Below are positions 17,666-54,360 of a stretch of 64,000 nt of DNA, piece after piece (the stretch's first letter is position 1; each line of letters opens with the position of its first letter). The position numbers and the translations under genes are program-made. The notes under the pieces were generated by a model, which saw nothing but the letters and a program-made list of their open reading frames with translations, ran no database searches and was not told where the DNA came from. Origin of the DNA: an uncultured Candidatus Saccharibacteria bacterium. GTDB lineage: Bacteria > Patescibacteriota > Minisyncoccia > UBA6257 > 2-01-FULL-56-20. The DNA lies in NCBI GenBank assembly GCA_964456235.1, contig CAYWDX010000001.1, positions 201,210-265,209 on the forward strand. Direction: 5' to 3'.

Positions 17666-17961
17666 GCGCATGAAATTGGAGCAGCCTCGGAAACGCCTGC
17701 TCCTGCGAGCCGAAAGGAGGCACCCGTGAGGTGGGTGAGCATAAAACCCGCAAACTGACTCATGAAGAATGATCACGCGGCTTCAGGGATCGCAGGAAGC
17801 AACGGAATATTCCCCGCTGTTTCCTTGTGATTCTCGAAAAAGGTTCGAACGTCGCGGACAATGCCGCTCAAAAGACAAGCAAGACAGGGCCGACTTTGAC
17901 AAAAGTTCATTTTCACTGTATTATATCGCCAGTACTAGATCAATTGAAAAAGGAGGGACCT

Positions 17962-26104: not shown

Positions 26105-26497
26105 TCAAATGTTTTTGTAGTGCCGCATGGCGATCGGATTGCCACTTTCGGATAGATCGACCGCGATGAGGTCGATCCGCCAACCAATCTCATCATCTAT
26201 AAGGTCTTGATTTCGGCGAGCAAAGATTTGGCGGGCAAAGAACTGTGCGGTCCGGTTGAGTTTACGAAGTTTTGCGGCCGATAGGTTGTCTTCGGGTGAA
26301 AAACCTCCTCGTTTTACTAAGGCCTTGACCTCTACGAAGACCAGCACCCTGATCGTGTCAATAGCTACGATATCCACCTCATCCGACCGATTTCTTTGAT
26401 TTCTAGCCAGAATTCTCCACCCTTTTTTTATCAAAAACTGGCATGCGACCTCCTCGCCGATATGCCCATTTCTAGCCGATTTTCTTATGAACTTCAT
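26105..26497 (-). CDS. yraN: YraN-family (UPF0102) endonuclease-like protein
   Basis: GEEVACQFLIKKGWRILARNQRNRSDEVDIVAI...LVFVEVKA matches the YraN consensus. Confidence 0.75.
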   Translation of the reverse strand: MKFIRKSARNGHIGEEVACQFLIKKGWRILARNQRNRSDEVDIVAIDTIRVLVFVEVKALVKRGGFSPEDNLSAAKLRKLNRTAQFFARQIFARRNQDLIDDEIGWRIDLIAVDLSESGNPIAMRHYKNI

Positions 26498-26907: not shown

Positions 26908-27243
26908 ATGACTGACAAAAATTTTGATGAGTATAAAAAGAAACTCGAAGGGGAGCGCCGGATGCTCCTTGCGGAGATAAAACAGGCCGAACGACCGCCA
27001 CGGTTTGGTGATGCGGAGGATCCTGATTGGGATGAGAAGACCGACGAAGCGGAGGAGTTATCAAAGCAACTTGCCATCGCGGGAGATCTCAAGAAGCGAC
27101 TGGACGAGATCGACATCGCTCTCTCAAAAATTTATTCAGGCAAGTATGGTGTCTGTGAAAAATGCGGCGGTGCCATCGAGCGTGAGGTATTGGAGGTTGA
27201 TCCCGCATCCCGGCTTTGCAAAGATTGCAAATCACGATCGTAA
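26908..27243 (+). CDS. DksA/TraR-family C4-type zinc-finger protein
   Basis: Coiled-coil N-terminus and a C-terminal CEKCGGAIEREVLEVDPASRLCKDCKS zinc finger. Confidence 0.75.
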   Translation: MTDKNFDEYKKKLEGERRMLLAEIKQAERPPRFGDAEDPDWDEKTDEAEELSKQLAIAGDLKKRLDEIDIALSKIYSGKYGVCEKCGGAIEREVLEVDPASRLCKDCKSRS

Positions 27244-27295: not shown

Positions 27296-28858
27296 GTGAT
27301 CAAAAATCTTGCCAGAACCTATTCGGCGGAACTTGAGGGGATTAACGCAAGACTGATCGAAGTTGAAATCGACATCAATGTCGGCCTTCACGCATTCAAC
27401 ATCGTTGGGCTAGCCGACCGCGCATTGAACGAGGCGCGCGAACGGGTGAACTCGGCGATCAAAAATTCTGGCGCCAAGCCGCCGAATCGGGAGAATCGGA
27501 AAATCACGGTCAACCTCGCGCCTGCCGATGTAAAAAAGACTGGTTCGCATTACGACCTTGCCATCGCGCTTGGTTATTTGTTTGCGACAAAGCAAATTGC
27601 ACGATTTGAAACCAGCGACAAAATTTTTGTTGGTGAATTAGCGCTTGATGGACGCTTGCGGCCGATCAGCGGCGCGCTCAATATCGCAGAATTGGCTGCG
27701 AAAAGGGGATTCAGAAAATTATTTCTGCCGCCAGAAAATGCCGCCGAAGCGGCGGCGATCAAAAACATCAGAATCGTCGCGGTTGAAAATTTGACAGCGG
27801 CGATCGCAATACTCGAGGGACGCGGAGAGCGAGCTTCAACGGCAACGCAGGGCGATCAAGCTCCTCAACAACCACGAAGCTCTTTCCCGGATTTTTCTGA
27901 AATTGTCGGCCAGGAGAATGCTAAACGCGCGCTCACGATCGCCGCGAGCGGAAACCACAATTTGCTTTTTGCCGGCAGCCCCGGCGTTGGCAAAAGCATG
28001 CTCGCTCGAGCATTGGTTAGGATCCTGCCACCGCCGACGCTTGCCGAATCAATCGAGATTACGAAAATTTGGAGTGCTGCCGGGTTGAGCCCTGGCCGCT
28101 TGGTCACCGAGCGTCCATTTCGCGCGCCGCACCAAACTTCATCGGCGCTTGCGCTCGTGGGAGGTGGGGGAGACCCGAGGCCGGGGGAAATCAGCCTCGC
28201 GCATCGGGGAATCCTCTTTCTCGATGAGTTGCCAGAATTCTCAGCGAGCGCACTCGAAGCGCTCCGAGAGCCCATGGAATCTGGCGTTATTCGCGTTGCC
28301 CGAGCTAAACGCAGCGTCACGTTTCCCGCAAAGTTCGCGCTCGTCGCCGCGATGAATCCGTGCCCGTGCGGATTTTATGGAGACCCGGATGCAAATTGCA
28401 CGTGTGGTGCGTACGAGGTAATTCGTTACCAGCGAAAAATTTCAGGGCCCCTGCTTGATCGGATAGATCTTCAGGTGCGCGTGGGGCGTGTGAAGGTGGG
28501 GGAGTTGCGGGAAGACGGCGAGCGGGCGACAGGCGCGGAAATGATGGGTCCGAAAATCAAACAGTCGGTTGAGGCAGCGCGTGGGCGGCAGGCGGAACGA
28601 TTCAAAAATAGCGGCCGCAGCAGCGGGCTCATGACGAACGCCGATATGACCTCGCGCGAAGTGCGCGGCATGGTCGCCCTTGAACCAACGGCAAGAAAAT
28701 TCCTAGAAACCTTCGATACAAGCAGGGTCTCCGCGCGCGGTTATTATCGCATTCTCAAAGTCGCGCGCACGATCGCGGATATAGAAAACGCGGACCTCGT
28801 GTCCGCGGAACATCTCGCCGAAGCATTCAGCTATCGGCTGCGCGATGATACTTCGTGA
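27296..28858 (+). CDS. comM: YifB/ComM-family Mg-chelatase-like AAA+ ATPase
   Basis: N-terminal Lon-protease-like domain, Walker A LLFAGSPGVGKSML, Walker B ILFLDEL, C-terminal ComM domain. GTG start. Confidence 0.85.
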   Translation: MIKNLARTYSAELEGINARLIEVEIDINVGLHAFNIVGLADRALNEARERVNSAIKNSGAKPPNRENRKITVNLAPADVKKTGSHYDLAIALGYLFATKQIARFETSDKIFVGELALDGRLRPISGALNIAELAAKRGFRKLFLPPENAAEAAAIKNIRIVAVENLTAAIAILEGRGERASTATQGDQAPQQPRSSFPDFSEIVGQENAKRALTIAASGNHNLLFAGSPGVGKSMLARALVRILPPPTLAESIEITKIWSAAGLSPGRLVTERPFRAPHQTSSALALVGGGGDPRPGEISLAHRGILFLDELPEFSASALEALREPMESGVIRVARAKRSVTFPAKFALVAAMNPCPCGFYGDPDANCTCGAYEVIRYQRKISGPLLDRIDLQVRVGRVKVGELREDGERATGAEMMGPKIKQSVEAARGRQAERFKNSGRSSGLMTNADMTSREVRGMVALEPTARKFLETFDTSRVSARGYYRILKVARTIADIENADLVSAEHLAEAFSYRLRDDTS

Positions 28859-28860
28859 AA

Positions 28861-29598
28861 TTATTTTTTCGCGAAAGGATTTCTTGCGCCAATCACTTGG
28901 AAGTTGAGCGAGCATCCCGTCGCATCGCCCGTCTGCCCCATGAGGCCAACGGCCTGTCCCTGCTGCACATAATCGCCGGGCTGGACCGAAACCTGTTCGA
29001 GATGTGAGTAGCGGGTGGCAATGCCACTGCCAAATGGATGTTCGATCAGGACAAAATTCCCGTAGCCGTCATTCCAGCCATTCAAAGTATTCACGATCGT
29101 GTTGTCGGGAACGACGAGACCCTCTGCTGCCGCGACGACTTTTGTGCCGCAGGAATTTACGATCGTGATCGAATTGTCGGTGCCCAAAATTCCCTGATTA
29201 ACTCCGCTCGCCGGCTTAATGAATTCGCTGTTGTAGTTCGGGAGGGCAAGGAGCGCTTTCTTGTTCGTCGGCTGAACCTTTGCAACGCTTCCGCCAGCGT
29301 AAAGCGTTCCCTCATCCCTTAACGCGGCGGCGTCCGGATCGATTACGCCCGATTCGGTTCCGGGATCTGACGGGGTCGGTGCCTGGCCGCTCGATGTGAT
29401 AAAAGCCCCGACGTCGTTTGCCGGCAGCGTGGCCATATTTATTTCCGCGCCCTCCGCACTTGCGACGAGTGATTGCGAAATCGGCGAGATACCGCTCGCC
29501 GAACCAAGACGGGACGCGAGACTCCGCTCTTCGATGAGATTTTGCTTGGGTAAGAATGAGATCGACAAGAAAGAAGCTAAACCCAAAAAAACGGCCAC
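28861..29598 (-). CDS. M23-family peptidoglycan endopeptidase
   Basis: C-terminal GYGNFVLIEHPFGSGIATRYSHL...GQTGDATGCSLNFQV matches the M23/LytM core. Start set at the GTG that gives a signal peptide AVFLGLASFLSISFL, because the longer ORF overlaps pcrA. Confidence 0.6.
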   Translation of the reverse strand: MAVFLGLASFLSISFLPKQNLIEERSLASRLGSASGISPISQSLVASAEGAEINMATLPANDVGAFITSSGQAPTPSDPGTESGVIDPDAAALRDEGTLYAGGSVAKVQPTNKKALLALPNYNSEFIKPASGVNQGILGTDNSITIVNSCGTKVVAAAEGLVVPDNTIVNTLNGWNDGYGNFVLIEHPFGSGIATRYSHLEQVSVQPGDYVQQGQAVGLMGQTGDATGCSLNFQVIGARNPFAKK

Positions 29599-32387: not shown

Positions 32388-32468
32388 GTTGTCGCAGGCT
32401 GCTGCGGGCGCTCTTGGGGATAAAACATTGGCCACTTTGGCCGTTTTAGTGCGGTATAATCTATATAA

Positions 32469-34547
32469 ATGATAGATGTGAAGAAGTTTGTCAGCGCCTT
32501 CTTGATTTTGGCCGCCTTGACGGCTTCCGGGGTGCTGCTCGTGAACTTCTCCGGCCGAATGCCGGCCGCTCCGACCGCCGGATCTATCACGCAGAATGGC
32601 TCGGTCCCAACGAATGCCTTCGCCCCTGAAAGCGCCTCTCTCCCGAATGATGCATCCGGGGGTACCGACATTAATGCTGCTATCACCTCTGACCCTAACA
32701 ATCTCACGAATCAACTGGCTGATTCGCTCCTTACGAACGTGATCACGGCGAACCCAAACGGCCCGCAGGACGATGGCAGCGGCGACGGGTTGTTGACACC
32801 ACCCGATCCCAATGCGGTGATTGCCGGCATCGACCCGAATGTTTACCGAAAGGTGACAATCCCTGACTGGGATTTTGAGGCGGCGATGCTTTCAGCTCAC
32901 ACCTCGGTGGCGGCGTCGAATTCTGACATCGCTCATTATGCGTCCGACGTAAGTTCCATCTTGGGCGACGTCAACCGCCAGGCAACCGCATTCGATGCGC
33001 AATCCACCGGCGAAGCCGACCTTGCGGCTTTGCATTCGCAAACTCAAACTTCGATTCAAAAATTGGCGAGTCTTACGATTCCAAAAGATCTTGCGAGCTT
33101 CCACAAGAATCTCGTCAACGTTTTGGTGTATCAAAAGAATGCACTCGCGCTCGTCGAGTCAGCTTCGAACGATCCCTTCAGGGCATCTCTCACGCTCGAA
33201 GCAGAGACGCCGAAATATCAAGTCGCTGCGCAGAAACTTCAGAAGGCCGCACAGGCCGCCGAAGCAAGCGGCGTGCTTTCGCTCCTCCCCAAGGATTCGT
33301 CAAACGGCGAAAATCGTTTATTGGCTGCCGTTCATTCGCTTATCGGCATTCCCACCGCGCACGCATTCATCGTCTTTGACCCAATAGCCGATGCGCAGAC
33401 GACGATCACGGCAACACAGCTCATCCTGCAGATCGTGAAGAGCGCGCTTTTACAGATTCTTAAGAATACTCTGATCACAATCATCCAAAACCGCGTTTTG
33501 GGTTTTATAAAAAATAACGGAAATCCGAAGTTTATTCAGGATTGGGGGCGATATGTTTCGGATGCATTTAACTTAACTGCGGGCGGCGCTCTCGGCCAAA
33601 TCGTTCCTGGTCTTTGCAATAATTTCAGCCCTCAAGTGACGCGGTGGCTTCAAAATTCTTTCCCGGGGGCGAGCATCATTCCTGGCGGAACATCGCTGAA
33701 CGGTGCGGCAGGAACAAACTGCTCCCTCCAAGGCGTAGCCGCGAACCCAAATTTCTATAACAACTTCTCGGCCGCGGGGCCGGACGCAGGATTTCAAGGG
33801 TTTATTTCATTGCTTAGTCCACAGAACAATCCCTTCGGTGCCTTCGCGGAAGCGCACGATGAAATATCCTTCCTTTCGAATGCTGCTGCAGGCGCCACTC
33901 AAAACAAAGCGGTATCTTCTGGTGGGTTTATAGGCCAAGAAATTTGCGGCGACGGATCAACGCCGAGCTCCGTTTTCACCTATTGCCAGGTGGGGCACGT
34001 TAATGCGAACGGGAGTTCCTGCGTGAACAGCAATGGATCAACCGTGGGAACGCCTTTCAGGCAAAGGGGTTGTGCTGATAGTAACCAGCCGTTTGTCACC
34101 GCTCCGGGAAGGACGATCGGCGATACGCTTTCGAATACTCTCGGCGCGAATATACACCTCGTCGTAAACGCTAACGACATTATCGGACTTGCGGCCACGA
34201 TTGGCGCGTCGCTTCTCGAGCAATTTGTAGCAGCTGGCATCCACGGTTTGATCACGACCCAGCCCGCAGGCACGGGTGCTGTTCCGACCACCGCACCGAG
34301 TCTGCCGCCGTTGGCTTGCATCCCAAGCCAACTCATTGCTTCGAGCAGCGATGTACTTGTTCTTAGTAGCACGGGGGGCGATGGCCTCAATTATGATTGG
34401 GTTGCGTTCGGTGGCAATCCTTCGAGCGGATCTGGAGTTTCATTTACAACATCATTTGCCAATCCGGGGACTTATAGCGTGACCGTTACGAACGTCCCGG
34501 CGGGAGCAAGCAGTCAGAGCGCATCCTGCGCCGTCACCATCCAATAA
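32469..34547 (+). CDS. Large secreted/membrane-anchored protein, first gene of the T4SS-like operon
   Basis: N-terminal TM FLILAALTASGVLLVNF, 692 aa with S/T/N/G-rich extracellular domains. Its C-terminal motif PGTYSVTVTN also occurs in the orphan fragment at 16790..16922. Confidence 0.6.
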   Translation: MIDVKKFVSAFLILAALTASGVLLVNFSGRMPAAPTAGSITQNGSVPTNAFAPESASLPNDASGGTDINAAITSDPNNLTNQLADSLLTNVITANPNGPQDDGSGDGLLTPPDPNAVIAGIDPNVYRKVTIPDWDFEAAMLSAHTSVAASNSDIAHYASDVSSILGDVNRQATAFDAQSTGEADLAALHSQTQTSIQKLASLTIPKDLASFHKNLVNVLVYQKNALALVESASNDPFRASLTLEAETPKYQVAAQKLQKAAQAAEASGVLSLLPKDSSNGENRLLAAVHSLIGIPTAHAFIVFDPIADAQTTITATQLILQIVKSALLQILKNTLITIIQNRVLGFIKNNGNPKFIQDWGRYVSDAFNLTAGGALGQIVPGLCNNFSPQVTRWLQNSFPGASIIPGGTSLNGAAGTNCSLQGVAANPNFYNNFSAAGPDAGFQGFISLLSPQNNPFGAFAEAHDEISFLSNAAAGATQNKAVSSGGFIGQEICGDGSTPSSVFTYCQVGHVNANGSSCVNSNGSTVGTPFRQRGCADSNQPFVTAPGRTIGDTLSNTLGANIHLVVNANDIIGLAATIGASLLEQFVAAGIHGLITTQPAGTGAVPTTAPSLPPLACIPSQLIASSSDVLVLSSTGGDGLNYDWVAFGGNPSSGSGVSFTTSFANPGTYSVTVTNVPAGASSQSASCAVTIQ

Positions 34548-34548
34548 C

Positions 34549-36099
34549 ATGCTGAAAAAACGACTGCCATTTATTCTTCTTGCCGGAATGGCGGCGGCGT
34601 TAGCGGCGGCTGCGCCGGCGCACTTCGCGCATGCCAGCTGGTTCGGCCTCGATACCATTGCCGGCGGGGTGATTGGTTATATCGCCTATGGACTTATCTA
34701 TATCATCGCGACCATCGCGGGGGTAGCGATTTCGATTATTACCTATCTCATCAGCATTCTTCTCCAGGTTAGCTCTAACGTCGTGAACACCGCAGCCGTG
34801 CAGGTTGGGTTTTCCGTGATGCTCGCGATCGCGAACCTTGGGTTTGTTCTTTTCATCATCATCATAGCGATCGCCACTATTCTGAAGAGGGAATCGTATG
34901 GAATGAAAAAATCGCTGTGGCGATTGGTCATCGCTGCCATACTCGTGAACTTCAGTCTCGTGATCGGGGGAGCGGTTATAAATTTTGCGAACATCATTAC
35001 CAACCAATTCTTGCAGCAACTTCCCGGCGGTGGAGGCAATAATGGGCCTACAACCTTCGCGCAAGAACTCGCTGGAGCTTTCGCGCCCCAAAAAGGACTT
35101 CTCGTACTTTCGAGCTCCGGGAATAATGTTGCCGGGAACATTGCGGGGTCAAACCTCGGAGACGTGAATGCCGGGAGTACTATCGCAAGCATGATCACCC
35201 CTGTCGTGAGCGTCTCTGCTGCTGCAGCTCTGCTTATCGCAATCATTATTACCCTCGCGGCATTTGCGACCATGTTGCTTATCCGATACGTGTATCTTTC
35301 TATACTCCTCATCGTGATGCCATTCGCTTGGCTCATGTGGGTATTTGAAGGGACGAAGGGACAATTCAAAAAGTGGTGGGATTCTTTCATTCGATGGTCG
35401 TTTTTTGCCCCTATTGTAGTATTTTTCCTTTGGCTTTCGATCGCGACGGCCCAAAAACTAAATACCAACAACAACGACAACCCGATAGGGTTTCTCGCCG
35501 GGACTAGTTATACCGCAAACACGTCGAATCCGATCACCGGGGCTCTCGGTTCAACGTTTGGATCTTTCGTTGCCGCCTTCGCCTCAACGTCGCTCCAAGC
35601 AGTGTTAGTTGTGGGGCTTGCGGTGGGCGGCATGATCGCGGCGAATAAGTTGAGTATCATGGGTGCGAAAAATGCTGTTGGCGCTATGGACGGTGGAGCG
35701 AAAGCTTTTAGAAATTATGTTGTAAAGCGGGGCAAAAGGGGAACGTTAACCGTTGCCCAAAAAACTATGGGTGGCGTAGCTAGGGTTGCAGCGCCTTCTC
35801 CTGGAGCACCGCCAAATGCATGGAATAGATTCCGAGGTAGTGTTGCGACGCGATTTTCTGGAGCCTCTGCTAACTTGGGTCAGGCTGCAACGAGTTCGAA
35901 TCTCAAAACTAAAGGTTTGGCTGCGACGGTCTGGGGTGGCATAAAGCAAGGGTCTGGATTATTTAAGGGCGCGAGCAAGAGCAGTAAGGATTGGGAATGC
36001 CAAGTTTGTCATAATGTTCAAAGAAGTACGATTAAGCCGACGACGGCGTGTCAAAATTGCCACTCTCCTGCCGCTCTAGCTAAATGGACTCAAATATAA
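34549..36099 (+). CDS. VirB6/TrbL-like polytopic membrane protein with C-terminal CxxC...CxxC
   Basis: Signal peptide, then at least 6 hydrophobic helices in the arrangement typical of TrbL/VirB6. C-terminal CQVCHN...CQNCHS. Confidence 0.6.
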   Translation: MLKKRLPFILLAGMAAALAAAAPAHFAHASWFGLDTIAGGVIGYIAYGLIYIIATIAGVAISIITYLISILLQVSSNVVNTAAVQVGFSVMLAIANLGFVLFIIIIAIATILKRESYGMKKSLWRLVIAAILVNFSLVIGGAVINFANIITNQFLQQLPGGGGNNGPTTFAQELAGAFAPQKGLLVLSSSGNNVAGNIAGSNLGDVNAGSTIASMITPVVSVSAAAALLIAIIITLAAFATMLLIRYVYLSILLIVMPFAWLMWVFEGTKGQFKKWWDSFIRWSFFAPIVVFFLWLSIATAQKLNTNNNDNPIGFLAGTSYTANTSNPITGALGSTFGSFVAAFASTSLQAVLVVGLAVGGMIAANKLSIMGAKNAVGAMDGGAKAFRNYVVKRGKRGTLTVAQKTMGGVARVAAPSPGAPPNAWNRFRGSVATRFSGASANLGQAATSSNLKTKGLAATVWGGIKQGSGLFKGASKSSKDWECQVCHNVQRSTIKPTTACQNCHSPAALAKWTQI

Positions 36100-36107
36100 T
36101 TTAGAAC

Positions 36108-37364
36108 ATGATTTTAGTTGATCAGATAACAGAACAAGAATTGGATCGGAGATTCGATAGCCTTTCTATAAAACTAAGAGATGCGCTCACATCGGAGCGA
36201 AATCTAAATATCGTTAGTGATATTTGTGAGAAAAATAAAATTCTCGACAAAGAAAAGGCGGCGGCTATTCACCAAATAATCGGTTTAACGATACTTGGCT
36301 TTGCTCACTATTATGATATCGGTAAAGAAATAAACGAGTCGTTGTCATTAAATAATTCAAAATTTTCTAATGATATCGCTGAAGAAATAAATGCTAAAAT
36401 TTTTTCTCCAATCAAAGATGATTTAGAGAATAATTATCATCCCATCATTAGTGAAGTTGCCAAAACACTAACCCCCGCCAAGATTCTTCAACCTGAAGAA
36501 AAAAAATTGCCGAAAATATTGACTGAAATAGCGACGCCGCAGGCGATCAAGCCGGCGCCGATACCAATATCAATCCCCATTCCCACGCCCACTCCTCCGC
36601 CCAAGCCCGCGGGCGTGCCAGTCCCCATGCCTTCGGTCCTCTCGCAATCGGCCGGCGCGTCGGCCAAGGTTGGGATCGCCCAGGTCACGCCCGATCGCTT
36701 GAAACCCGCGGCGCCTCCACCGCCTGGCTGGTCAAAAGCCCGGTCAGGGGAACCAGTCGTGAAGCTTAGCGGCCCCGTGATGCCCGCGCCTCCGGTCCCG
36801 CCCGGATCCTTAAATAAAATGCCGAGTGGACCAGCGGTGACGGTATCTATCACCCCACCAACGGCGCCTGCCGCACCAAAAATGCCGACGGCATCATCAG
36901 CGCCGATCGCGAAGCCATCCGAACCGGCGCCGATTCTGATCCACGAAGATGCATCGCTGCGGCCGCAGCAAAAAATTCCTGACTTCCATTTCCCGATCAC
37001 TCCGGACACGACAAAAAAAGAGTCAACTGCGCCGCCGCTCAAGCCCGCGATCCTCGAGCTTGGTAAAAATGCTCCGAGCGGTATGGCGAACACTGCGGCG
37101 CTAAAGCCGAGCACCGTTGCCTCGACCCGCGTCGTCCATTACACCGAATATAAATCGCCGACGCCGGAGACGCCGATCAAACCGGTAGCGCCGCAGGGGC
37201 CGCGGCAGGTGACAGAACTCACCATGCAAAAGCCGGCGCCGCGAACGATGCCCGCTGCAGCGACACCGCCGAAACCTCCGCTCAACCCGTCGCTGCCGCC
37301 GGGGCCGCCAAGTCCTTCGAGCTCGCCGCCCGTTCCGCCAGGACTGCCGCCGCAAAAGAAATAG
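36108..37364 (+). CDS. Proline-rich protein with an AT-richer N-terminal domain
   Basis: ~140-aa N-terminal domain followed by ~270 aa rich in P/A/S/K (PxP, PPPP runs). Confidence 0.5.
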   Translation: MILVDQITEQELDRRFDSLSIKLRDALTSERNLNIVSDICEKNKILDKEKAAAIHQIIGLTILGFAHYYDIGKEINESLSLNNSKFSNDIAEEINAKIFSPIKDDLENNYHPIISEVAKTLTPAKILQPEEKKLPKILTEIATPQAIKPAPIPISIPIPTPTPPPKPAGVPVPMPSVLSQSAGASAKVGIAQVTPDRLKPAAPPPPGWSKARSGEPVVKLSGPVMPAPPVPPGSLNKMPSGPAVTVSITPPTAPAAPKMPTASSAPIAKPSEPAPILIHEDASLRPQQKIPDFHFPITPDTTKKESTAPPLKPAILELGKNAPSGMANTAALKPSTVASTRVVHYTEYKSPTPETPIKPVAPQGPRQVTELTMQKPAPRTMPAAATPPKPPLNPSLPPGPPSPSSSPPVPPGLPPQKK

Positions 37365-37380
37365 CCCAGGGAGCAATATA

Positions 37381-37406
37381 GATGACCGGCCCTTCGGCCG
37401 GTCATC
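37381..37406 (+). other. Perfect 11-bp stem hairpin (GATGACCGGCC ttcg GGCCGGTCATC) inside the operon
   Basis: Read from the sequence; no T-run follows. Lies between the Pro-rich gene and the prgI-like gene. Confidence 0.6.
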
Positions 37407-37422
37407 AGTTATAATAGAGGTG

Positions 37423-37920
37423 ATGCAATATCAAGTGCCGCAATTTATCGAGACCGAAGACAAGATCGTGGGCCCCCTTACGCTCCGCCAGTTTATTTAT
37501 GTGGGCATTGGCGCCCTGCTTTCCGCCCTCCTTTATTTCATGGTCCAGACGTGGCTCTGGCTGATTCTCTCTATATTTATAGTAGGAATTGCTGTGGGGG
37601 TTGCTTTTGTGAAGGTTGAGGGCCGGGCGCTCGGCAATGTTATTCTTTCGGCGGCAAGCTTCTATTGGAACCCCCAGACCTACGTTTGGCAGGCGGCGCA
37701 TGCTGCAAAGGCTCCGAAATCCCAGGGAGACTCGGGGTTTGTTGCATCTCTCCAGAAGATCGCGGAGGGCGCGGCGCTTCGCAAGCACTGGGAAAGCCTG
37801 CAGACGGGGGAAAAGATGTCGGCTGAAAAGTTTGCCGAAAAGAAAATGAATGAGCGTTACGCTATCTTTCGCACGATCATGGGCGATCGTGAAGCGGCGC
37901 GGCGAGTGGATTACCGGTAA
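37423..37920 (+). CDS. PrgI-family (VirB3-like) small membrane protein
   Basis: MQYQVPQFIETEDKIVGPLTLRQFIYV followed by two TM helices, the typical PrgI-family N-terminus, located immediately upstream of virB4. Confidence 0.65.
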   Translation: MQYQVPQFIETEDKIVGPLTLRQFIYVGIGALLSALLYFMVQTWLWLILSIFIVGIAVGVAFVKVEGRALGNVILSAASFYWNPQTYVWQAAHAAKAPKSQGDSGFVASLQKIAEGAALRKHWESLQTGEKMSAEKFAEKKMNERYAIFRTIMGDREAARRVDYR

Positions 37921-37941
37921 AAATCGTGGGAAAATAAATAC

Positions 37942-38619
37942 ATGGCCACGAACCAAGCGGCGGGTAATTCATTGGATCTCGTGAACATTAAGGAGATCCG
38001 CGACAATACCATCATCCTTAAAGACGGTGGGATGAAGCAGATCGTGATGGTGGGCGGCGTGAATTTTGCTTTGAAATCCGAGGAGGAGCAGAACCTCATG
38101 GTGCAGGGATACCAAACGTTTCTGAACGGCATCGATTTCCCGCTCCAAGTCGTGGTGCACTCGCGCAAAGTGAATGTCGATAAATATATCGAGACGCTTC
38201 TCGAGCGCAAACAATCCGAGGAGTCGCCGCTCCTGCGCAACCAGATCGACGAATACGTGGAATTCGTGAAGGGGTTTGTCGAAAAAAATGCGATCATGGA
38301 AAAAAGTTTTCTCGTGGTCGTGCCATTTTACCCGACGATGGGTTTGCCGAGCGGATCATCGCTTACAAGATTCCTTCCGTTCGGGAAAAAATCGAAACCG
38401 GATGATGCCGCGAAGAAGAGCGCTGAAGAAAACGAGCGCGCGTTCAAAGAAAATTTGGCCCAGCTTGGCCAGCGCGTGACGCAGGTCGTGAACGGGCTTC
38501 TCGTCGTCGGCCTCGAGGCGACCGCGCTCGAAAACGATGCGCTCGTCGAGCTCCTCTATAACTTTTACAATCCCCAGACGGTCGAGCGAAAAGAAATTGC
38601 CGTGCCCAACGAACATTGA
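37942..38619 (+). CDS. virB4: VirB4/TraC-family ATPase, N-terminal domain (split gene or frameshift)
   Basis: 225 aa. Stop TGA at 38617..38619 overlaps the TTG/ATG start of the ATPase part in the -1 frame. Confidence 0.55.
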   Translation: MATNQAAGNSLDLVNIKEIRDNTIILKDGGMKQIVMVGGVNFALKSEEEQNLMVQGYQTFLNGIDFPLQVVVHSRKVNVDKYIETLLERKQSEESPLLRNQIDEYVEFVKGFVEKNAIMEKSFLVVVPFYPTMGLPSGSSLTRFLPFGKKSKPDDAAKKSAEENERAFKENLAQLGQRVTQVVNGLLVVGLEATALENDALVELLYNFYNPQTVERKEIAVPNEH

Positions 38620-40373
38620 TCTCGCGGAACATGCCTCCCGAACAAAAACCTGACAACTTCGACAAGATCAAGCAGATCATCGCACCGGCGGGGGCGCAGG
38701 TTTTCCCGAGCTATTTAAAAATTGGCGACAAACTCGCGAAAACGTTTTTCGTGTTTTCGTATCCGCGCTATCTCGCGACCGGATGGTTCGAGCCGCTCAT
38801 TAATCTGCCGAATTTGTTTGATGTTTCCATTTTCGTAAACCCGATCGACACGGGCACCGCGCTTAAAAATCTCCGCAAAAAAGCGGGCCAGCTCGAGTCG
38901 CAAATCATGGACGACCAGGAGAAGGGTTTGGTCCGCGACCCGATGCTTGAAACGGCGGTCAAGGATGTCGAAAATTTGCGCGACTCACTTCAGCAGTCGG
39001 AGGAGAAACTTTTTGACACCGGCGTTTACATCACGATTTACGCCGACAACGAAGAAGACCTCGCGCGCCTCGAGAGCAAACTCGTCACCATGATGGAGGC
39101 GAAGCTCATCTATTTGAAACCTGCGCTCTTTGAACAGTTGGAAGGGCTTTCGTCCATTTTGCCGCTCGGCGAGGACAAGCTACAGGTCTACACGCCGATG
39201 AACACCTCGCCGATCTCGTCATTCTTCCCGTTCGTTTCTGAAGATCTTTCCTCGAACCAGGGGATTATGTATGGCATCAACCTCCACAACAATAATTTGG
39301 TAATTTTCGATCGCTTCTCCCTCGAGAATGCAAACCAGGTAGTGTTCGCAAAGTCCGGCGCCGGGAAATCGTACACCACGAAACTGGAGATCATCCGCTC
39401 GCTCATGATGGGCGTCGACATGGTGCTCGTGATCGATCCGGAAAATGAATATGAGCGTCTTGCAAAAACATTCGGCGGGAGTATGTTCAATATTTCCCTT
39501 TCGTCGCACGAGCACATTAATCCGTTCGACCTCCCGCTCATCCCGGAAGGCGAAACGCCGTCCGATGTTTTGCGCTCGCATATCGTGACGATCACGTCGC
39601 TCATTAAATTGATGCTCGGCAAGGTGACGCCGGAGGAAGACGCGATCCTCGATCGCGCGATTACCGAAACCTACGCCTCGCGTGACATCGTGGTTGACGG
39701 CGACTTCGCCGGGAAAGAGCCGCCACTCTTGAGCGACCTTGAAACCGTGCTCCGCAATTTGGAGGGAGGCCGCGAGATGGCGGAAAAGCTTTACAAATAC
39801 ACCTCTGGCAGCTTCTCGGGCTTTTTGAACCAGTCCACGAATATCGACATCAACAATCGGCTGATCGTGTTTTCGATCCGCGATCTTGAAGAAGAACTGC
39901 GTCCGATCGGCATGTTTGTAGTACTGAACTTTATCTGGTCACTCATCCGCGCGAAACTCGCGAAGCGCCTGCTCTTCATTGATGAGGCGTGGATCATGAT
40001 GAAAAACGATGACAGCGCCACATTCTTGTTCGGCCTTGTGAAGCGCGCCCGCAAATATTTTTTGGGCGTTTCGACGATCACCCAAGACGTCGAAGATTTC
40101 TTACGGTCGCCCTACGGCCGCCCGATCATTACAAACTCCTCATTGCAGCTGTTGCTCAAGCAGGCGCCGGCGACGATCGATATCGTTGCAAAAGCGTTCG
40201 AGCTCACCGAGGCGGAAAAAAATTTTCTTTTGAGCGCCGAGGTGGGCACGGGAATTTTCTTTGCCGGCAAACGCCACGTCGCGATCCAAATTGTTCCGTC
40301 CTATTTCGAAGATCAGGTAATCACGACGAACCCCGAACAACTCCTTGCTGAAAAAGAGGGCCGGCTTAAATAA
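38616..40373 (+). CDS. virB4: VirB4/TraC/TrsE-family ATPase, C-terminal ATPase domain
   Basis: Walker A FAKSGAGKSYTT and Walker B LLFIDEAW. TTG at 38616 or ATG at 38631. Confidence 0.8.
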   Translation: MISRNMPPEQKPDNFDKIKQIIAPAGAQVFPSYLKIGDKLAKTFFVFSYPRYLATGWFEPLINLPNLFDVSIFVNPIDTGTALKNLRKKAGQLESQIMDDQEKGLVRDPMLETAVKDVENLRDSLQQSEEKLFDTGVYITIYADNEEDLARLESKLVTMMEAKLIYLKPALFEQLEGLSSILPLGEDKLQVYTPMNTSPISSFFPFVSEDLSSNQGIMYGINLHNNNLVIFDRFSLENANQVVFAKSGAGKSYTTKLEIIRSLMMGVDMVLVIDPENEYERLAKTFGGSMFNISLSSHEHINPFDLPLIPEGETPSDVLRSHIVTITSLIKLMLGKVTPEEDAILDRAITETYASRDIVVDGDFAGKEPPLLSDLETVLRNLEGGREMAEKLYKYTSGSFSGFLNQSTNIDINNRLIVFSIRDLEEELRPIGMFVVLNFIWSLIRAKLAKRLLFIDEAWIMMKNDDSATFLFGLVKRARKYFLGVSTITQDVEDFLRSPYGRPIITNSSLQLLLKQAPATIDIVAKAFELTEAEKNFLLSAEVGTGIFFAGKRHVAIQIVPSYFEDQVITTNPEQLLAEKEGRLK

Positions 40374-40378
40374 CCCGC

Positions 40379-41086
40379 ATGAACGAGGAGCTCGAAGCGG
40401 CTGAAATTGAGGGTGCGGTCGCGCCCGAGCCGAAAATTTCTCTGGTTGTCGGCGTACTCGGGGTAATCATCGCCATCGTCCTCGATGTTATCGGCCTCAT
40501 ACCATTTGTCGACGACGTTGAAGAGCTACCCGCGGGGATGGTTTTAATATTGAGCAGTATTTTCGGCTTGAGCAATGTCGTCTTGATGGTGCAAGCGGTA
40601 GCCATGGTTTTGAAAGCGATTCCGATCATCCAAGAGGTCCCATTTTGGACCATCGCGTGGTGTGTCACCTGGTATATCGAAGCTCATCCTTCCAAGCTCA
40701 CGGCGATTGCAGAGCGGGCTGCGTCGGTTGCCGGTGCGGTGGAGGGGAACGTGGGAGGGCTTGAAGAAGCAGGGGCGGCTGGCGCGGCCGAGGCGGCAGG
40801 TGCGGCAAAGACTGCTGCTGGGGCTGCGGCGGGGACCGCCGCCGAAGCCGCGGTTACTGCAGAAAGTGGGGCAGCAGAGGCCGGTGAACAATCTGCAGAA
40901 CGAGCTCGCCAAGCCAAGCCCCGTGAAGAAATTGAGCATGAAATGCGGAGTGGCGAGGAAATCCCGCCCGATGAGCGGCTTAAAGAAGAATTATTCAACC
41001 CGAGCGACGTTAATTTCCGCCAGGCACGCGACATTGAGGCGGGTCCAGAAGATGAAGACGAACCCGACGAGGAAAAGGCCGCGTAA
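40379..41086 (+). CDS. Hypothetical membrane protein with Ala-rich repeat and acidic C-terminus
   Basis: Three predicted TM helices, then (A/G/E/T)-rich low complexity and a DEDEPDEE tail. Confidence 0.5.
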   Translation: MNEELEAAEIEGAVAPEPKISLVVGVLGVIIAIVLDVIGLIPFVDDVEELPAGMVLILSSIFGLSNVVLMVQAVAMVLKAIPIIQEVPFWTIAWCVTWYIEAHPSKLTAIAERAASVAGAVEGNVGGLEEAGAAGAAEAAGAAKTAAGAAAGTAAEAAVTAESGAAEAGEQSAERARQAKPREEIEHEMRSGEEIPPDERLKEELFNPSDVNFRQARDIEAGPEDEDEPDEEKAA

Positions 41087-41104
41087 AGTTGTATAATAAA
41101 GGTA

Positions 41105-41812
41105 ATGAAGGCGCGTGTTCTCGGCACTTTTGCGCTGGCTGCCGTGTTTTTTATAAGCGGCGCGTTTGCGATGCCGGCGAGCGTCGAAGCGGTTGCCGGT
41201 CCGCAGGTTTATATTACTTGGCGCACCCTCGACGGCGTGGCGCCGGCGGGATACGCGGGGAAAATCCTTCCAAAAATTGGCTCGCAGGTGGCCGCATCAG
41301 TTGAAGTGCTCACCGCGAGTGGCCGCGTTGCCGATTTGCACAACCAAACTATTTATTGGTATTTGGATAACAGTTTTTTGGATGGCGGAACGGGAAAACA
41401 AACCATAACGTTCGGCGCGCCGGGTCATAACGAAATCATGTCGCTTCGCGCGGACATCCCGGGTTACCCGGGCGGGGAGTTAATCATGACGGCGCACATT
41501 CGCATGGTAAATCCAGAAGTCGTGATCGTCGCTCCCTACGCAAGCGGAATTTTTTCAGGAGATTCGGTTGCCGTGAAAGGCGTGCCGTATTTCTTTTCGA
41601 CCTCTCAATTGAATAGTCTTGTCTACGCGTGGTCGGTGAACGGCCAAACGGTGGCCGCGCAGGAAAATCCGCTCGACCTCGTCGTTAATTTGACCAATGG
41701 GACCGTGGCTGGATATTCTCTCGGAATCAATTTCTCGGCGCGGGTGAGCGGCGACCCGCTAACCAGCGCCTCGCAGAACATCACCCTCGCGAAAGCCGGC
41801 GCATCACAATGA
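41105..41812 (+). CDS. Hypothetical secreted protein
   Basis: Signal peptide MKARVLGTFALAAVFFISGAFA. Confidence 0.5.
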   Translation: MKARVLGTFALAAVFFISGAFAMPASVEAVAGPQVYITWRTLDGVAPAGYAGKILPKIGSQVAASVEVLTASGRVADLHNQTIYWYLDNSFLDGGTGKQTITFGAPGHNEIMSLRADIPGYPGGELIMTAHIRMVNPEVVIVAPYASGIFSGDSVAVKGVPYFFSTSQLNSLVYAWSVNGQTVAAQENPLDLVVNLTNGTVAGYSLGINFSARVSGDPLTSASQNITLAKAGASQ

Positions 41813-42363
41813 TTTTTTTATCAAAGGCGCTCGCGGCCGGCGTTAACATCAACCCCGACATCCCCGGCCTCACCCCCTCGACCAGCATCTCGGGCCTCAT
41901 CCAGAACTTCTACAGCTTTGCCCTCTTGATAGCCGGGGTCCTTGCCGTTGGCGCCATTGTGTATGGGGGGATGCGCTATGCCGTAGGGCATGGAAATCCC
42001 TCGTCTGAGAGTGAAGGAAAGAGCTGGATCGTCGGGGCCCTCTTGGGCCTCCTCCTCCTTGCCTCTGCCTATGTGATCCTCCATACCATCAACCCCGAGA
42101 TCACGAAGCTCTCGATCCCTGGTCTCCCCCCGCTTGACGCTGCCCCTACGGGGGAGGGGTTGGGGGGAGGGGCCCCGAGTAATATTTACACTTCTTCGCA
42201 CTCAAGCGATCCCGCGTGCCAGCAGCGTCAGGCAGGAACGTGCGTTTGGCTCCCGAATCGAGCGATGTCTTCCACATGCAGCGGCTATCAAAGTGTTTGG
42301 CCGGATGACCACTGTAACGATCCGCCCCCGCACCAGCAATGCGAGATATTTCATCAATGTTAA
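41809..42363 (+). CDS. VirB2/TrbC-like pilin candidate with Cys-rich C-terminal extension
   Basis: Leader plus two hydrophobic helices (GLIQNFYSFALLIAGVLAVGAIVYGG ... WIVGALLGLLLLASAYVILHTINP) in VirB2-type topology, then a 70-aa tail with 6 Cys. ATGA overlap with the upstream gene. Confidence 0.5.
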   Translation: MIFLSKALAAGVNINPDIPGLTPSTSISGLIQNFYSFALLIAGVLAVGAIVYGGMRYAVGHGNPSSESEGKSWIVGALLGLLLLASAYVILHTINPEITKLSIPGLPPLDAAPTGEGLGGGAPSNIYTSSHSSDPACQQRQAGTCVWLPNRAMSSTCSGYQSVWPDDHCNDPPPHQQCEIFHQC

Positions 42364-42372
42364 AATAAATCC

Positions 42373-43632
42373 ATGAGGCGCCTCTATATTATTCTCGCGA
42401 TCTTTGTGGTGATTATTCTTGGTGCGGTCAGTTATTTAGTTTTCTTCCGCGGATCAACTCAGCCAGGAACGGGGACGGCTCCAACCGGAAGCACTGGTTC
42501 GTTGCCTTCGGCTGGTGGCGCGGGCGGGGGCGCTGGCACGGGCGGGAACGGCGGGGCTGGTTCGCAAACGGGCAGTGGCGCGGGGGCGGGCAATCTTCCT
42601 GCGGCGGGCGGCGTGCAAGGGAGCACGAGCTTTGGCGTTGTGAGCGACCAGCCTGCGATTGATTATTTTGTTGATGTAAAAAATAACGTGACGATTATTG
42701 CGCCCAATGGCGAGATCAAATCGGTGGCTGGCGGGACAACGAAATCTCTGAACGCCGCAGGCGCGGAGAATATTTTGGCTTCCGGTTTCGCCTACAACGG
42801 AACGAAATTATTAGTAAATTTTGGCGACCGAACCAACCCGCAAACGAGCGTTTTTGACGTCTCCTCGACCGCCTGGACGCCGCTCGGCCTCGGCATCATC
42901 TCGCCGGTTTGGTCGCCAAGCGACATGCGGATCGCGTATCTCAAAAATAATTCTGATGGATCGGCAACGCTCTCCACGCTTGACCTTTCAAAAGCAACCA
43001 ACAAACCAGTCGCGCTGGTTACGGTGCATGCAGAAGACGTCACGCTCGCCTGGCCAAATAAAAATCAGATTATGTTGAGCGACAAGGGAAGCGCGTATGA
43101 AGAAGGTTCACCCCTCGTCTATGATCTCGTGCAAAAAACCCTGCTGCGTCCGATGGCGGCCGTTCACGGCTTTGCCGCAATTTGGAGCAATACGACGAAT
43201 ACTGCCGCGCTCACATTTTCGAGCGGGGCTGCGGCGCGTGGCGGCGACTTATCTCTCTGGACGAATAATCTTTCCTCATCCGAAAGCCTGACCATCCTCA
43301 CGCTCCCATCCAAGTGTGTATTTAATAGTGTGGTTGGGGTTGCTTCGGCCGGGACTTCGACGCCGGCTGCCGCGCCGTATCTTGCCCTGTATTGCGCAAT
43401 CCCACAAAACGCTTCTGCGCTCTCAAGCGCCGTATTGCCGGATGACTATAATCAGCAGGCGCTTTTCACCGTTGATTCGCTTTATAAAATCCGGACCGAC
43501 AACGGCGACGTTCAGACGCTGCTCACCCCCGCGCAGGCAGTTGATGCCACCAACCTCAAGGTTTTTGGGAAAACCCTCTTCTTTATTAACCGGTACGACA
43601 ATAAGGTCTACGCGCTCTCGCTCGGCGCCTAA
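42373..43632 (+). CDS. Hypothetical secreted protein (Gly-rich linker + probable beta-rich domain)
   Basis: N-terminal TM/signal, GAGGGAGTGGNGGAGSQTGSGAGAG linker, 300-aa C-terminal domain. Confidence 0.5.
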   Translation: MRRLYIILAIFVVIILGAVSYLVFFRGSTQPGTGTAPTGSTGSLPSAGGAGGGAGTGGNGGAGSQTGSGAGAGNLPAAGGVQGSTSFGVVSDQPAIDYFVDVKNNVTIIAPNGEIKSVAGGTTKSLNAAGAENILASGFAYNGTKLLVNFGDRTNPQTSVFDVSSTAWTPLGLGIISPVWSPSDMRIAYLKNNSDGSATLSTLDLSKATNKPVALVTVHAEDVTLAWPNKNQIMLSDKGSAYEEGSPLVYDLVQKTLLRPMAAVHGFAAIWSNTTNTAALTFSSGAAARGGDLSLWTNNLSSSESLTILTLPSKCVFNSVVGVASAGTSTPAAAPYLALYCAIPQNASALSSAVLPDDYNQQALFTVDSLYKIRTDNGDVQTLLTPAQAVDATNLKVFGKTLFFINRYDNKVYALSLGA

Positions 43633-46901: not shown

Positions 46902-46991
46902 ACGAAGAATTCTTCGTCTTATCCACAAAAATCCAAACCCCACTAGTAATAACAAATCTTAATAATTAATTAATATTATTAATTCCATTTT
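46901..46991. promoter_or_regulatory. oriC candidate: 18-bp palindrome, perfect DnaA box TTATCCACA (46919..46927) and AT-rich unwinding element
   Basis: GACGAAGAATTCTTCGTC is a perfect palindrome right after the dnaA stop. It is followed by TTATCCACA and then a run that is almost all A/T (aataattaattaatattattaattccatttt) up to the dnaN start. Confidence 0.6.
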
Positions 46992-52680: not shown

Positions 52681-54360
52681 ATGGCTGGTTTACATCCGAT
52701 CGATCTTCAGAGTCGGCTCGAAAAGCTCCGGCAGGAAGGCGAGGAGCGGTCCGCGGAGCGCCTTTCGAAGCAGCTTGGCGTGGCCTACGTTGACTTGACC
52801 AAGATGCCGATTTCGCTTGAAGCGGTGCGCATGATCCCCGAGGCCAAGGCTCGCGATGCCAAGATGGCTTGTGTGGAAATTAAAGGACAGACCCTCGCGC
52901 TCGCGGCGGTGAATCCTGAACTCCCAGCGGTGAAAGCGATCACGGATGAGCTCCACGCGCAAAAATACGAGACGAAACTTTTTATCGCGAGCGCTTCGGG
53001 GCTTGAAGCCGCCTGGCGCCTCTATAAATTTGTAAAAGCCGCGGGCGCGGAGATCACGGGGAAAGTTGAAATCCAAAAGAAGCGTATCGATGAACTGCAC
53101 GATGAGATCACGAGCCTCGACGCGGTAAAAAATGAATTCGCAAAAATAAATTTTGCTGACGCGACGCCCATCGCCATCATGGAGCTCATGCTCGCTGGTG
53201 CTTCCGCGCTCCGCGCATCCGACGTGCACGTGGAAGCCGAAGAGAAAAAAGCAAAAATCCGTTTTCGCATCGACGGGTTGCTCCACGACGTGTTCGATGC
53301 GGTGCCGCTCCACTCATATCTCGCGCTGGTCTCGCGCCTGAAATTACTTTCCGGCATGAAGCTGAACGTACGCGACGAGGCGCAGGACGGCCGTTTCACG
53401 ATGACGCTCGCAGGAAGAGAAATGGAGATGCGCGTTTCCGTAATCCCGGCCGAGTTCGGCGAGACGGTCGTGATGCGCATTCTTGATCCGGCGGCGACGC
53501 TCGTCGGTCTGCCGGACCTCGGCTTGCGTCCGGACAATTTGGAAATGGTGAAGGCGGCGCTCGCGAAACCAAACGGGCTGCTTTTGAATACCGGCCCGAC
53601 CGGTTCGGGGAAGACGACGACGCTCTACGCATTTTTGCGCAGCGTGAACAATCCCGAGTTGAAGATCATTACGCTCGAAGATCCGATTGAGTACCGTCTC
53701 GAAGGGATCGAACAGACTCAAGTTGATGAAGAATCGGGATATACCTTTGCGAACGGGCTCCGCGCCATAGTGCGGCAAGATCCCGACGTTGTTCTCGTCG
53801 GTGAAATCCGCGATTTGGAAACCGCCGACATCGCTTTGCAAGCCGCTCTTACGGGGCATCTCGTTTTTTCGACCCTCCACGCGAATGATGCCATCGGCGC
53901 CGTGCCACGCCTCGTGAGTCTTGGCGTGAAACCGCCGAGCATCGGTCCGGCGCTCGCGCTCGTCATCGCCCAGCGCCTGGTGCGCGTCCTCTGCCCGGAT
54001 TGTAAAAAACAAAAATCGCCCGACGAGGCGGCGCACGCGCGCATTAAAAATTTCTTAAGCAAGCTGCCCTCGCGCGTTGCGAAGGCGCCCTACGAGAACG
54101 TCACGCTCTACACATCCGCGGGCTGTACAAAATGTAATGGGATAGGGTATAAAGGGCGGGTAGGGATCTTTGAATTTTTAGAAGGCGGCGCGGAACTCGA
54201 GAAGGCGATCATGAAGGACGCCTCCGAAGTTTCGCTCCGCGAAGTGGCCGCACAACAGCAGATGGTCACCATGCAGGAAGACGGCATCCTAAAAGTCTTG
54301 GAAGGAAAAACCACCTTCGAAGAGGTGGAGAGCGTGACCGGCCCGATCCGATGGGAGTAG
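52681..54360 (+). CDS. pilB: Type IV pilus assembly / type II secretion ATPase (PilB/GspE family)
   Basis: Walker A LLNTGPTGSGKTTTL, Asp box, His box, and a C-terminal tetracysteine CPDC...CTKC. Confidence 0.85.
   Translation: MAGLHPIDLQSRLEKLRQEGEERSAERLSKQLGVAYVDLTKMPISLEAVRMIPEAKARDAKMACVEIKGQTLALAAVNPELPAVKAITDELHAQKYETKLFIASASGLEAAWRLYKFVKAAGAEITGKVEIQKKRIDELHDEITSLDAVKNEFAKINFADATPIAIMELMLAGASALRASDVHVEAEEKKAKIRFRIDGLLHDVFDAVPLHSYLALVSRLKLLSGMKLNVRDEAQDGRFTMTLAGREMEMRVSVIPAEFGETVVMRILDPAATLVGLPDLGLRPDNLEMVKAALAKPNGLLLNTGPTGSGKTTTLYAFLRSVNNPELKIITLEDPIEYRLEGIEQTQVDEESGYTFANGLRAIVRQDPDVVLVGEIRDLETADIALQAALTGHLVFSTLHANDAIGAVPRLVSLGVKPPSIGPALALVIAQRLVRVLCPDCKKQKSPDEAAHARIKNFLSKLPSRVAKAPYENVTLYTSAGCTKCNGIGYKGRVGIFEFLEGGAELEKAIMKDASEVSLREVAAQQQMVTMQEDGILKVLEGKTTFEEVESVTGPIRWE

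Follow-up and report, generated by a model that had tools for sequence, protein, structure and literature searches.

What is a type IV secretion system (T4SS) for when its genes sit in a chromosome beside the replication origin, with no genes for DNA processing nearby? We addressed this question for a ten-gene cluster in contig CAYWDX010000001.1, analysing a 64-kb stretch of DNA around it (hereafter, the window). The organism is a tiny Parcubacteria-type bacterium, and the cluster is a permanent part of its chromosome, next to the origin. A preliminary description of this DNA had recognised ten co-directional T4SS-like genes that were unlikely to form a conjugative element. We confirmed ten consecutive open reading frames (ORFs) on the plus strand at 32469-43632, all intact and at the coordinates first given, with profile and structure searches supporting their assignments. 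In gene order they are referred to here as G1 to G9, the fifth position being occupied by two genes, G5a and G5b. We conclude, with a probability of roughly 0.85, that the cluster encodes a chromosomal, vertically inherited T4SS typical of Patescibacteria (the Candidate Phyla Radiation, CPR) in its Paceibacteria/Parcubacteria form, derived from the mating-pair formation (MPF) class MPF-FATA and unlinked from DNA-processing genes. Its identity as a Patescibacteria T4SS is close to certain, and it probably works as an apparatus for host contact and exchange rather than for conjugation.

The motor of the system was identified by profile searches. G5b (38631-40373, plus strand, 580 amino acids), which starts at the ATG at 38631, is the body of a VirB4 ATPase: it matched the NCBIfam model NF045971 (conju_CD1110) at 3.6e-120 and 402.5 bits, against a cut-off of 325, and its matches to PF19044 (P-loop_TraG), PF12846 (AAA_10) and PF01935 (DUF87) exceeded the Pfam gathering scores. 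The Walker A (GAGKS) and Walker B (LLFIDEAW) motifs are both intact in the translation. The preceding gene, G5a (37942-38619, plus strand, 225 amino acids, with its TGA stop at 38617-38619), is TrsD-like and equivalent to the N-terminal domain of VirB4. Its NCBIfam matches were to the N-terminal region of VirB4_plasma (2.5e-11) and to TrsD (1.1e-6), both below the full-length cut-offs, and to VirB4_CagE (3e-5), and a PF26593 (TraC-like) match is precomputed for it on an identical public contig. The original VirB4 call stands, and the split noted there is not a defect. Of 77 related loci, 71 encode the two parts as individual ORFs, in varying relative frames, and 6 encode them as a fusion; a frameshifted virB4 was rejected on these grounds. 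Because the divided layout prevails to this extent, it is the native state, consisting of a TrsD-like gene followed by virB4, and neither a sequencing artefact nor a sign of decay.

G4 (37423-37920, plus strand) encodes a PrgI/VirB3-like small membrane protein of 165 amino acids, or 166 if translation begins at an alternative GTG at 37420. It matched PF12666 (PrgI) at 4.3e-10 and 40.4 bits, against a gathering score of 27, in agreement with the precomputed annotation of the identical Logan contig.

G2 (34549-36099, plus strand, 516 amino acids) is a VirB6/TrbL-like polytopic membrane protein. At the level of sequence the evidence was weak, with a match to the Mbov_0396 membrane protein of integrative and conjugative elements (ICEs) in NCBIfam (1.4e-5), and comparison of the G2 profile with PDB sequences returned nothing beyond low-complexity noise from the C-terminal tails of orthologues. 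A fold search established that G2 has the VirB6 fold, and a fraction of its orthologues and database homologues carries TrbL, TrbL_3 or TrbL_4. The protein is much shorter than its orthologues, which span approximately 580-1560 amino acids. Near its C terminus lies a zinc-ribbon-like CxxC-13-CxxC motif (35998-36063, residues 484-504) that was present in 0 of the 50 orthologues examined and was thus seen in this genome only (1 of 51 family members).

The putative filament subunit is G8 (41809-42363, plus strand), a VirB2-like pilin module that matched PF18895 (T4SS_pilin) at 4e-10 and 40.1 bits, over a gathering score of 26.6, and TrbC/VirB2 (PF04956) at 5.6e-3. Thus, the PrgI and pilin assignments proposed earlier both pass the gathering scores of their families, and the VirB6/TrbL-like assignment of G2 is upheld by its fold and by the TrbL-type matches among its homologues. 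G8 consists of two hydrophobic helices followed by a C-terminal tail of about 90 residues with six cysteines. No second pilin gene and no other T4SS paralogue were found in the window. Orthologues of G8 keep the pilin module and differ in their C-termini, which are mostly Cys-rich, with up to 21 cysteines per whole protein. In two relatives, the ORF at the G8 position joins the pilin module to a hydrolase: a Peptidase_M23 domain in locus L031 (12134-12943; 2e-33) and an SLT_3 lysozyme-like domain in locus L037 (14495-15745; 1.3e-8). Both termini of the pilin point outward in the F-pilus and, by analogy, such C-terminal extensions would be displayed on the filament surface.

To place the cluster among its relatives, VirB4 was used to scan genome collections, yielding more than 593 confirmed relatives, of which 80 were kept for locus comparison. 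All 80 come from Patescibacteria metagenome-assembled genomes, mostly of Paceibacterota/Parcubacteria, and share 56-89% VirB4 identity with the query. The best plasmid-encoded VirB4s belong to Actinobacteria and Firmicutes, both monoderm, at 30-37% identity, which agrees with a monoderm MPF-FATA origin of this VirB4. The order ksgA / G1-G9 / jag-yidC-dnaA-dnaN-pbp1 recurs repeatedly among the related species-level loci, so that the comparison across CPR genomes called for in the preliminary description reveals recurring gene order and recurring flanks. Where 9 kb or more of sequence follows virB4 (48 loci), dnaA lies downstream of it in 46, at a median distance of 5.1 kb, and ksgA lies upstream in 41 of 53.

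Families were counted with jackhmmer over all ORFs of the 80 loci, G4 (PrgI) being traced by tblastn instead. VirB4 itself (G5b) was recovered in 79 loci and its TrsD-like partner G5a in 73, followed by G7 (67), G8 (58), G9 (55), G2 (51), G6 (50), G3 (49, including the minimal loci with a fused VirB4) and G1 (46). The fused-VirB4 subclade (L015, L016, L018, L028, L029 and L031) has a reduced cluster at the same ksgA/jag site, made up of VirB6, G3, PrgI, VirB4, sometimes G6 and, in L015, L028 and L029, a pilin of about 100 amino acids (99 in the minimal version), without G1, G7 and G9. This subclade defines the minimal core of the system. Because gene order and flanks are conserved across species-level genomes, the ten-gene set is a unit of ancient origin that has been inherited vertically at one fixed place in the chromosome, and not a mobile element, an ICE or the recent remnant of one.

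The gene content of the window points the same way. Pfam scans of its other large ORFs (30 ORFs) revealed no relaxase, no type IV coupling protein (T4CP) of the VirD4/TcpA kind, no VirB11-size ATPase and no integrase in the 64 kb, and the ORFs without any Pfam match have no Walker A motif and begin with signal- or lipoprotein-like N-termini. No origin of transfer (oriT), relaxase or coupling protein was found linked to the mating-pair genes within the window, the only notable inverted repeat being a hairpin between G3 and G4. Other signatures of a mobile conjugative element are likewise missing: there is no integrase, no adjacent tRNA (an Rfam scan of the window found four tRNAs only, none flanking the cluster) and no break in GC content, which in the cluster resembles that of the flanks without compositional anomaly; the locus is syntenic, not patchy. 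The preliminary description had named a nearby relaxase, VirD4 or integrase, or a failure of the VirB4, VirB6 and PrgI assignments, as observations that would count against its reading; none of these genes lies nearby, the three assignments held in profile searches and synteny is conserved across 80 species-level genomes. Its statement that VirD4 and relaxase are absent holds for the 64-kb window only, and a genome-wide absence cannot be claimed. The reported lack of VirB11 needs a similar qualification: no VirB11-size ATPase is encoded, although a relative from the same superfamily lies 9 kb downstream of the T4SS genes. This PilB/GspE-type ATPase (52681-54360; T2SSE, 2e-118) has an MshEN N-domain and 559 amino acids and, for these two reasons, is a type IV pilus ATPase that belongs to the VirB11 superfamily without having VirB11 architecture.

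The other five genes of the cluster, for which families are delimited here, encode its accessory proteins. G1 (32469-34547, plus strand, 692 amino acids) is a membrane-anchored or secreted protein and a conserved T4SS accessory component. Its structure model (predicted local distance difference test, pLDDT, 73.5) begins with an N-terminal transmembrane (TM) helix or anchor and a linker that is disordered; then come a bundle of helices, one long helix of hydrophobic character (residues ~305-351), an alpha/beta region that contains Cys and, at the C terminus, a PKD domain (residues ~615-692). A fold search found specific structural relatives for the PKD domain only, the main body matching no solved structure specifically. 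Three G1 homologues gave sub-threshold matches to DUF4141 on the hydrophobic helix, and DUF4141 proteins are encoded next to traJ in Bacteroides conjugative transposons. TraJ is a VirB6 homologue. This neighbourhood and the 1-nt spacing between G1 and the virB6-like gene make G1, by position, a candidate VirB5-like protein of a stalk or tip; homology was not supported by the fold search, so that the idea is only a lead.

G3 (36108-37364, plus strand) is soluble and combines a conserved, helical N-terminal domain (N-domain) of about 110 residues with a tail rich in proline (18% Pro). Neither Pfam nor NCBIfam gave a match, no sequence relative was found in the PDB, and the protein lacks a TM segment. 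For the N-domain, a word-indexed homologue search came back empty, as did profile searches against PDB sequences and Pfam, while an exhaustive phmmer search of a 1.84-billion-protein library retrieved 828 cluster representatives at E<=1e-3; the domain is N-terminal in 150 of the 150 matches listed. G3 is thus an unannotated family, and one that is kept even in the minimal variants of the locus. G6 (40379-41086, plus strand) is a small membrane protein with at least two TM helices, conserved Pro82 and Pro88 and a low-complexity, Ala-rich acidic tail that varies among orthologues; family searches, including those of Pfam and NCBIfam, gave no match for it.

The two remaining accessory proteins have recognisable folds. 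G7 (41105-41812, plus strand, 235 amino acids) is a tandem Ig-like extracellular protein with an N-terminal hydrophobic segment (residues 5-23) that is either a signal or a TM anchor; Trp85 and Trp176 are invariant, and the family profile matches the Ig-like domains of phage T4 Hoc (9.4e-7). G9 (42373-43632, plus strand, 419 amino acids) is bitopic, with a TM segment at residues 6-24, a Gly/Ala/Ser-rich linker and a TolB-like beta-propeller in which Cys315 and Cys341 form an invariant pair; its family profile matches TolB propellers at 5e-10 to 7e-8. Sec-type N-termini were found on all the extracellular components. The TolB-like propeller, the tandem Ig-like protein, the PKD-tipped G1 and the hydrolase-bearing pilin modules of relatives are new annotations.

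Systems of this kind have been described before. In a survey of 3,035 Patescibacteria genomes, Quinonero-Coronel et al. 2025 (PMC12102498) identified a VirB4 clade that is monophyletic and lies within MPF-FATA; TrsD, PrgI/VirB3, VirB6 and VirB2-like pilins are encoded near virB4, and the TrsD and VirB4 arrangement is the commonest feature. Relaxases were almost lacking, and VirD4 homologues were present in most genomes, mostly far from virB4. In Paceibacteria the T4SS genes lie near dnaA, dnaN, ksgA, rnpA and rpmH, and a gene-dosage effect was proposed. The Patescibacteria systems are regarded as the newest members of the T4SS superfamily (review PMC12857230, FEMS). Our locus resembles the Paceibacteria form of PMC12102498 in its VirB4 with a separate TrsD-like protein, its PrgI/VirB3, VirB6 and PF18895 pilin, its chromosomal site beside the same five genes and its lack of a relaxase or T4CP near virB4. 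No essential difference was found; the survey leaves the other neighbouring genes unannotated, whereas the G1, G3, G6, G7 and G9 families are delimited here and in part assigned to folds.

The only experimentally tested relative is the T4SS of Southlakia epibionticum ML1 (SEML1_0006-0019). Using transposon sequencing (Tn-seq), Wang et al. 2023 (PMC10633639) found that this cluster, including its pilins, is essential for epibiotic growth; it has no recognisable coupling protein or relaxase, and protein export was suggested as a possible function. Like our locus, it is a Gram-positive-like T4SS with pilins, and its low locus-tag numbers suggest that it is also close to the origin. In contrast to the array of six divergent pilins with adjacent peptidase and lysozyme genes in S. 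epibionticum, our cluster has a single pilin with a Cys-rich tail and no hydrolase gene inside it, an M23 peptidase being encoded upstream on the other strand. A considerable part of the bacterial diversity not yet cultivated consists of Patescibacteria, which live attached to other microbes, and the conserved origin-proximal T4SS is among the few machines shown to be essential for this lifestyle, in one Saccharibacteria strain.

More distant comparisons separate the locus from conjugative elements. The conjugative MPF-FATA systems of C. difficile CTn2 (with the CD1110-type VirB4), pCF10 (Prg/Pcf) and pGO1/pSK41 (Trs, with TrsD and TrsE) share with it a VirB4 for which CD1110 is the best curated model, PrgI, a separate TrsD-like gene as in pGO1 and the lack of an outer-membrane core. 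They are, however, mobile elements with a relaxase, a T4CP, oriT and surface adhesins and without VirB2-type pilins, whereas our locus is chromosomally fixed, includes a pilin and has no DNA-processing genes nearby. The Helicobacter pylori ComB system for DNA uptake and the protein-exporting Ptl of Bordetella and VirB of Brucella also operate a VirB4 without a coupling protein or relaxase, and rely on VirB2/3/4/6-type parts. All three are diderm systems whose outer-membrane core consists of VirB7/9/10, and both Ptl and Brucella VirB also have a VirB11; none of these parts was found here, Pfam and NCBIfam giving no VirB7/9/10-like match for any protein of the cluster, and sequence relatedness to the three systems is remote. 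Overall, the locus has the tested defining features of a Patescibacteria-clade T4SS and lacks those of a conjugative element. Both the kind of system and its position near the origin were described for Patescibacteria between 2023 and 2025, which makes the locus a good example and not a discovery: it is a clean and complete Paceibacteria case with ten co-conserved genes delimited, five of them previously without annotation, and nothing new in kind.

Building on the observed parts list, topology signals and conservation, we propose that VirB4 and its TrsD-like partner, anchored through PrgI on a VirB6 platform, would assemble a VirB2-type pilus, filament or stalk. Because no coupling protein or relaxase is encoded nearby, this assembly is what VirB4 most likely powers. 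The Sec-exported G1, G7 and G9 would probably make up, or be displayed on, the section that spans the wall and contacts the host; the apparatus would serve episymbiotic host contact and macromolecule exchange, and the delivery of any substrate would be independent of a T4CP. Several points weigh against this proposal. Within the cluster, no counterpart of VirB8 or VirB1 was recognised. The genome might have a T4CP gene at another site, whose product could act at a distance and allow transfer of DNA or effectors. The roles suggested for G1, G3, G6, G7 and G9 were deduced only from fold, topology and co-conservation, and the function as a whole is extrapolated from one Saccharibacteria strain, not from any Paceibacteria system. 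To our knowledge, none of these systems has been seen to produce a pilus.

Two other functions deserve consideration, protein export and DNA import, which are not mutually exclusive. A T4CP-independent exporter like Bordetella Ptl or Brucella VirB might place Sec-exported hydrolases or Cys-rich binders onto or into the host. The Sec-type N-termini would suit such a role, as would the Peptidase_M23 and SLT_3 domains on orthologous pilin modules; exporters without a T4CP are established (PMC12857230), and export is the possibility raised by Wang et al. (PMC10633639). Yet no effector gene is recognisable in or beside the cluster within the window, the pilin encoded here has a small Cys-rich tail only, and the hydrolase fusions may instead perform a VirB1-type function in crossing the organism's own wall, leaving dedicated export a possible but rather unlikely purpose. 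Still less probable is a DNA-uptake machine like H. pylori ComB, perhaps with host DNA as a source of nucleotides. Its VirB2/3/4/6-like composition without a nearby T4CP or relaxase is shared by our locus, a comM homologue (27296-28858) lies three genes upstream and is syntenic in several relatives, and import of DNA or macromolecules is the hypothesis favoured by the authors of PMC12102498. Against this, deletion of comEC in S. epibionticum abolishes competence and not viability (PMC12857230), and competence there needs type IV pili. As the T4SS is essential while comEC is dispensable, the essential role of the T4SS is not ComEC-coupled DNA uptake. In our cluster, moreover, no DNA-binding component was recognised, and the model for CedB, an archaeal importer ATPase, gave a score of 33 bits where the cut-off is 700, which amounts to negligible similarity.

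A decayed or domesticated ICE, left as a non-functional remnant by the recent loss of its relaxase, T4CP and integrase, would explain a VirB4 of the conjugative MPF-FATA type and a virB4 that looks 'split' at first sight. The split is nevertheless the conserved native state, the ten ORFs are intact and no integrase, tRNA junction or compositional break marks the locus. Since the locus and both flanks stay syntenic across species-level genomes that have diverged to the VirB4 identities given above, long-term purifying selection and vertical descent are required. We rejected the remnant on this synteny and on the absence of mobility genes from the window, and regard it as barely credible. Within the preferred reading, a Patescibacteria T4SS for host contact, a bolder version can be formulated tentatively and with more doubt than confidence: the Paceibacteria-specific, co-conserved G1, G3, G6, G7 and G9 might jointly form an undescribed extracellular half of a monoderm T4SS, in which G1 would be the functional counterpart of VirB5 at the stalk or tip and the VirB2-like module would carry interchangeable C-terminal cargo (Cys-rich binders, M23 peptidase or SLT lysozyme) on a pilus that breaches and taps the host cell. 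For structural studies, the accessory families and the pilin modules with hydrolase domains offer concrete candidates.

We also examined how the cluster might be transcribed. The distances between consecutive genes from G1 to G9 are 1, 8, 58, 21, 11, 5, 18, -4 and 9 nt. The tight packing noted in the preliminary description is therefore real, while the 'several' ATGA overlaps reported there come down to one, between G7 and G8 (41809-41812). Exact TATAAT boxes on the plus strand precede G1 (32455-32460, 8 nt before the ATG) and, in each case 7 nt before the ATG, G3 (36095-36100), G4 (37410-37415) and G7 (41092-41097). A box at this position (-13/-14) occurs at 4 of the 10 T4SS genes and at 0 of 41 other genes in the window, with a chance expectation of about 0.006 per upstream region. 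Such spacing would put the start of transcription at or beside the start codon, which suggests that the boxes are candidate promoters of leaderless or near-leaderless transcripts. They are not treated as a defining feature of the system because they are only partly conserved at orthologous genes. Directly behind the stop codon of G3, and ahead of the G4 TATAAT box, lies a GC-rich hairpin of 11 bp with a CUUC loop (37381-37406, plus strand; -22.9 kcal/mol, z = -3.1); it lacks a U-tract and probably bounds or stabilises a transcript. Another hairpin, which resembles a terminator, lies behind ksgA (32429-32443). The idea of a single operon is thus borne out as far as co-directional packing goes, although the boxes and the G3-G4 hairpin mean that the cluster may divide into up to four transcription units.

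The genomic setting is that of the origin block, as first described. The cluster is preceded upstream by genes for a ComM-like ATPase, for an M23 peptidase on the minus strand, for UvrD/PcrA and for KsgA. On its downstream side, the minus-strand genes jag, yidC, rnpA and rpmH come first, followed by dnaA, dnaN and the gene for a class A penicillin-binding protein. The M23 peptidase gene (28861-29598, minus strand), whose product has 245 amino acids according to the identical public contig, is found three genes upstream of the cluster and recurs within a comM-M23-(uvrD)-ksgA block in several relatives; the enzyme may be a VirB1-type wall hydrolase that serves the system. DnaA-box-like 9-mers (TTATCCACA, with at most one mismatch) are enriched in the window, with 17 observed against 7.2 expected. 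A perfect box lies at 46919-46927 in the AT-rich dnaA-dnaN spacer (46902-46991), and a pair of boxes at 4290-4310. This excess is consistent with an origin-proximal region.

Housekeeping functions were recognised for other large ORFs of the window, namely folate and thymidylate enzymes, FtsH, ClpP, an H+-pyrophosphatase (H+-PPase), NusA, an aminoacyl-tRNA synthetase of the TyrRS/TrpRS class, parts of RuvABC, CTP synthase and a two-component system. Besides the PilB-type ATPase, the scans also detected a DNA methyltransferase and a reverse transcriptase. Between 26527 and 26661, three tandem repeats of about 45 nt, each with the palindrome TGTGTTTATCGGTAAACACA, occupy an AT-rich intergenic region (GC ~0.45) between a divergent UPF0102/YraN-like gene (26105-26497, minus strand) and a gene for a DksA/TraR-type zinc-finger protein (26908-27243); their arrangement resembles an operator array. 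Three large ORFs without a Pfam match (420, 862 and 621 amino acids) lie at 6781-12587 and probably encode surface proteins; the 862- and 621-residue products have signal- or lipoprotein-like N-termini, and the ORF at 10722-12587 contains internal repeats with a period of ~264 nt and a local GC content of up to 0.60. A fragment match to a D12-class adenine methyltransferase (17021-17776, minus strand), beside unannotated ORFs at 17827-18756 and 18753-19913, may mark a restriction-modification or defence module (17021-19913).

Finally, a diversity-generating retroelement lies at 61346-63913. Its variable repeat of 123 nt (61928-62050) is at the 3' end of the ORF at 61346-62056, and its reverse transcriptase gene spans 62876-63913 (PF00078, 3.3e-24). 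The template repeat (62427-62549) matches the variable repeat at 86% of positions, and all mismatches within the repeat fall at adenines of the template.

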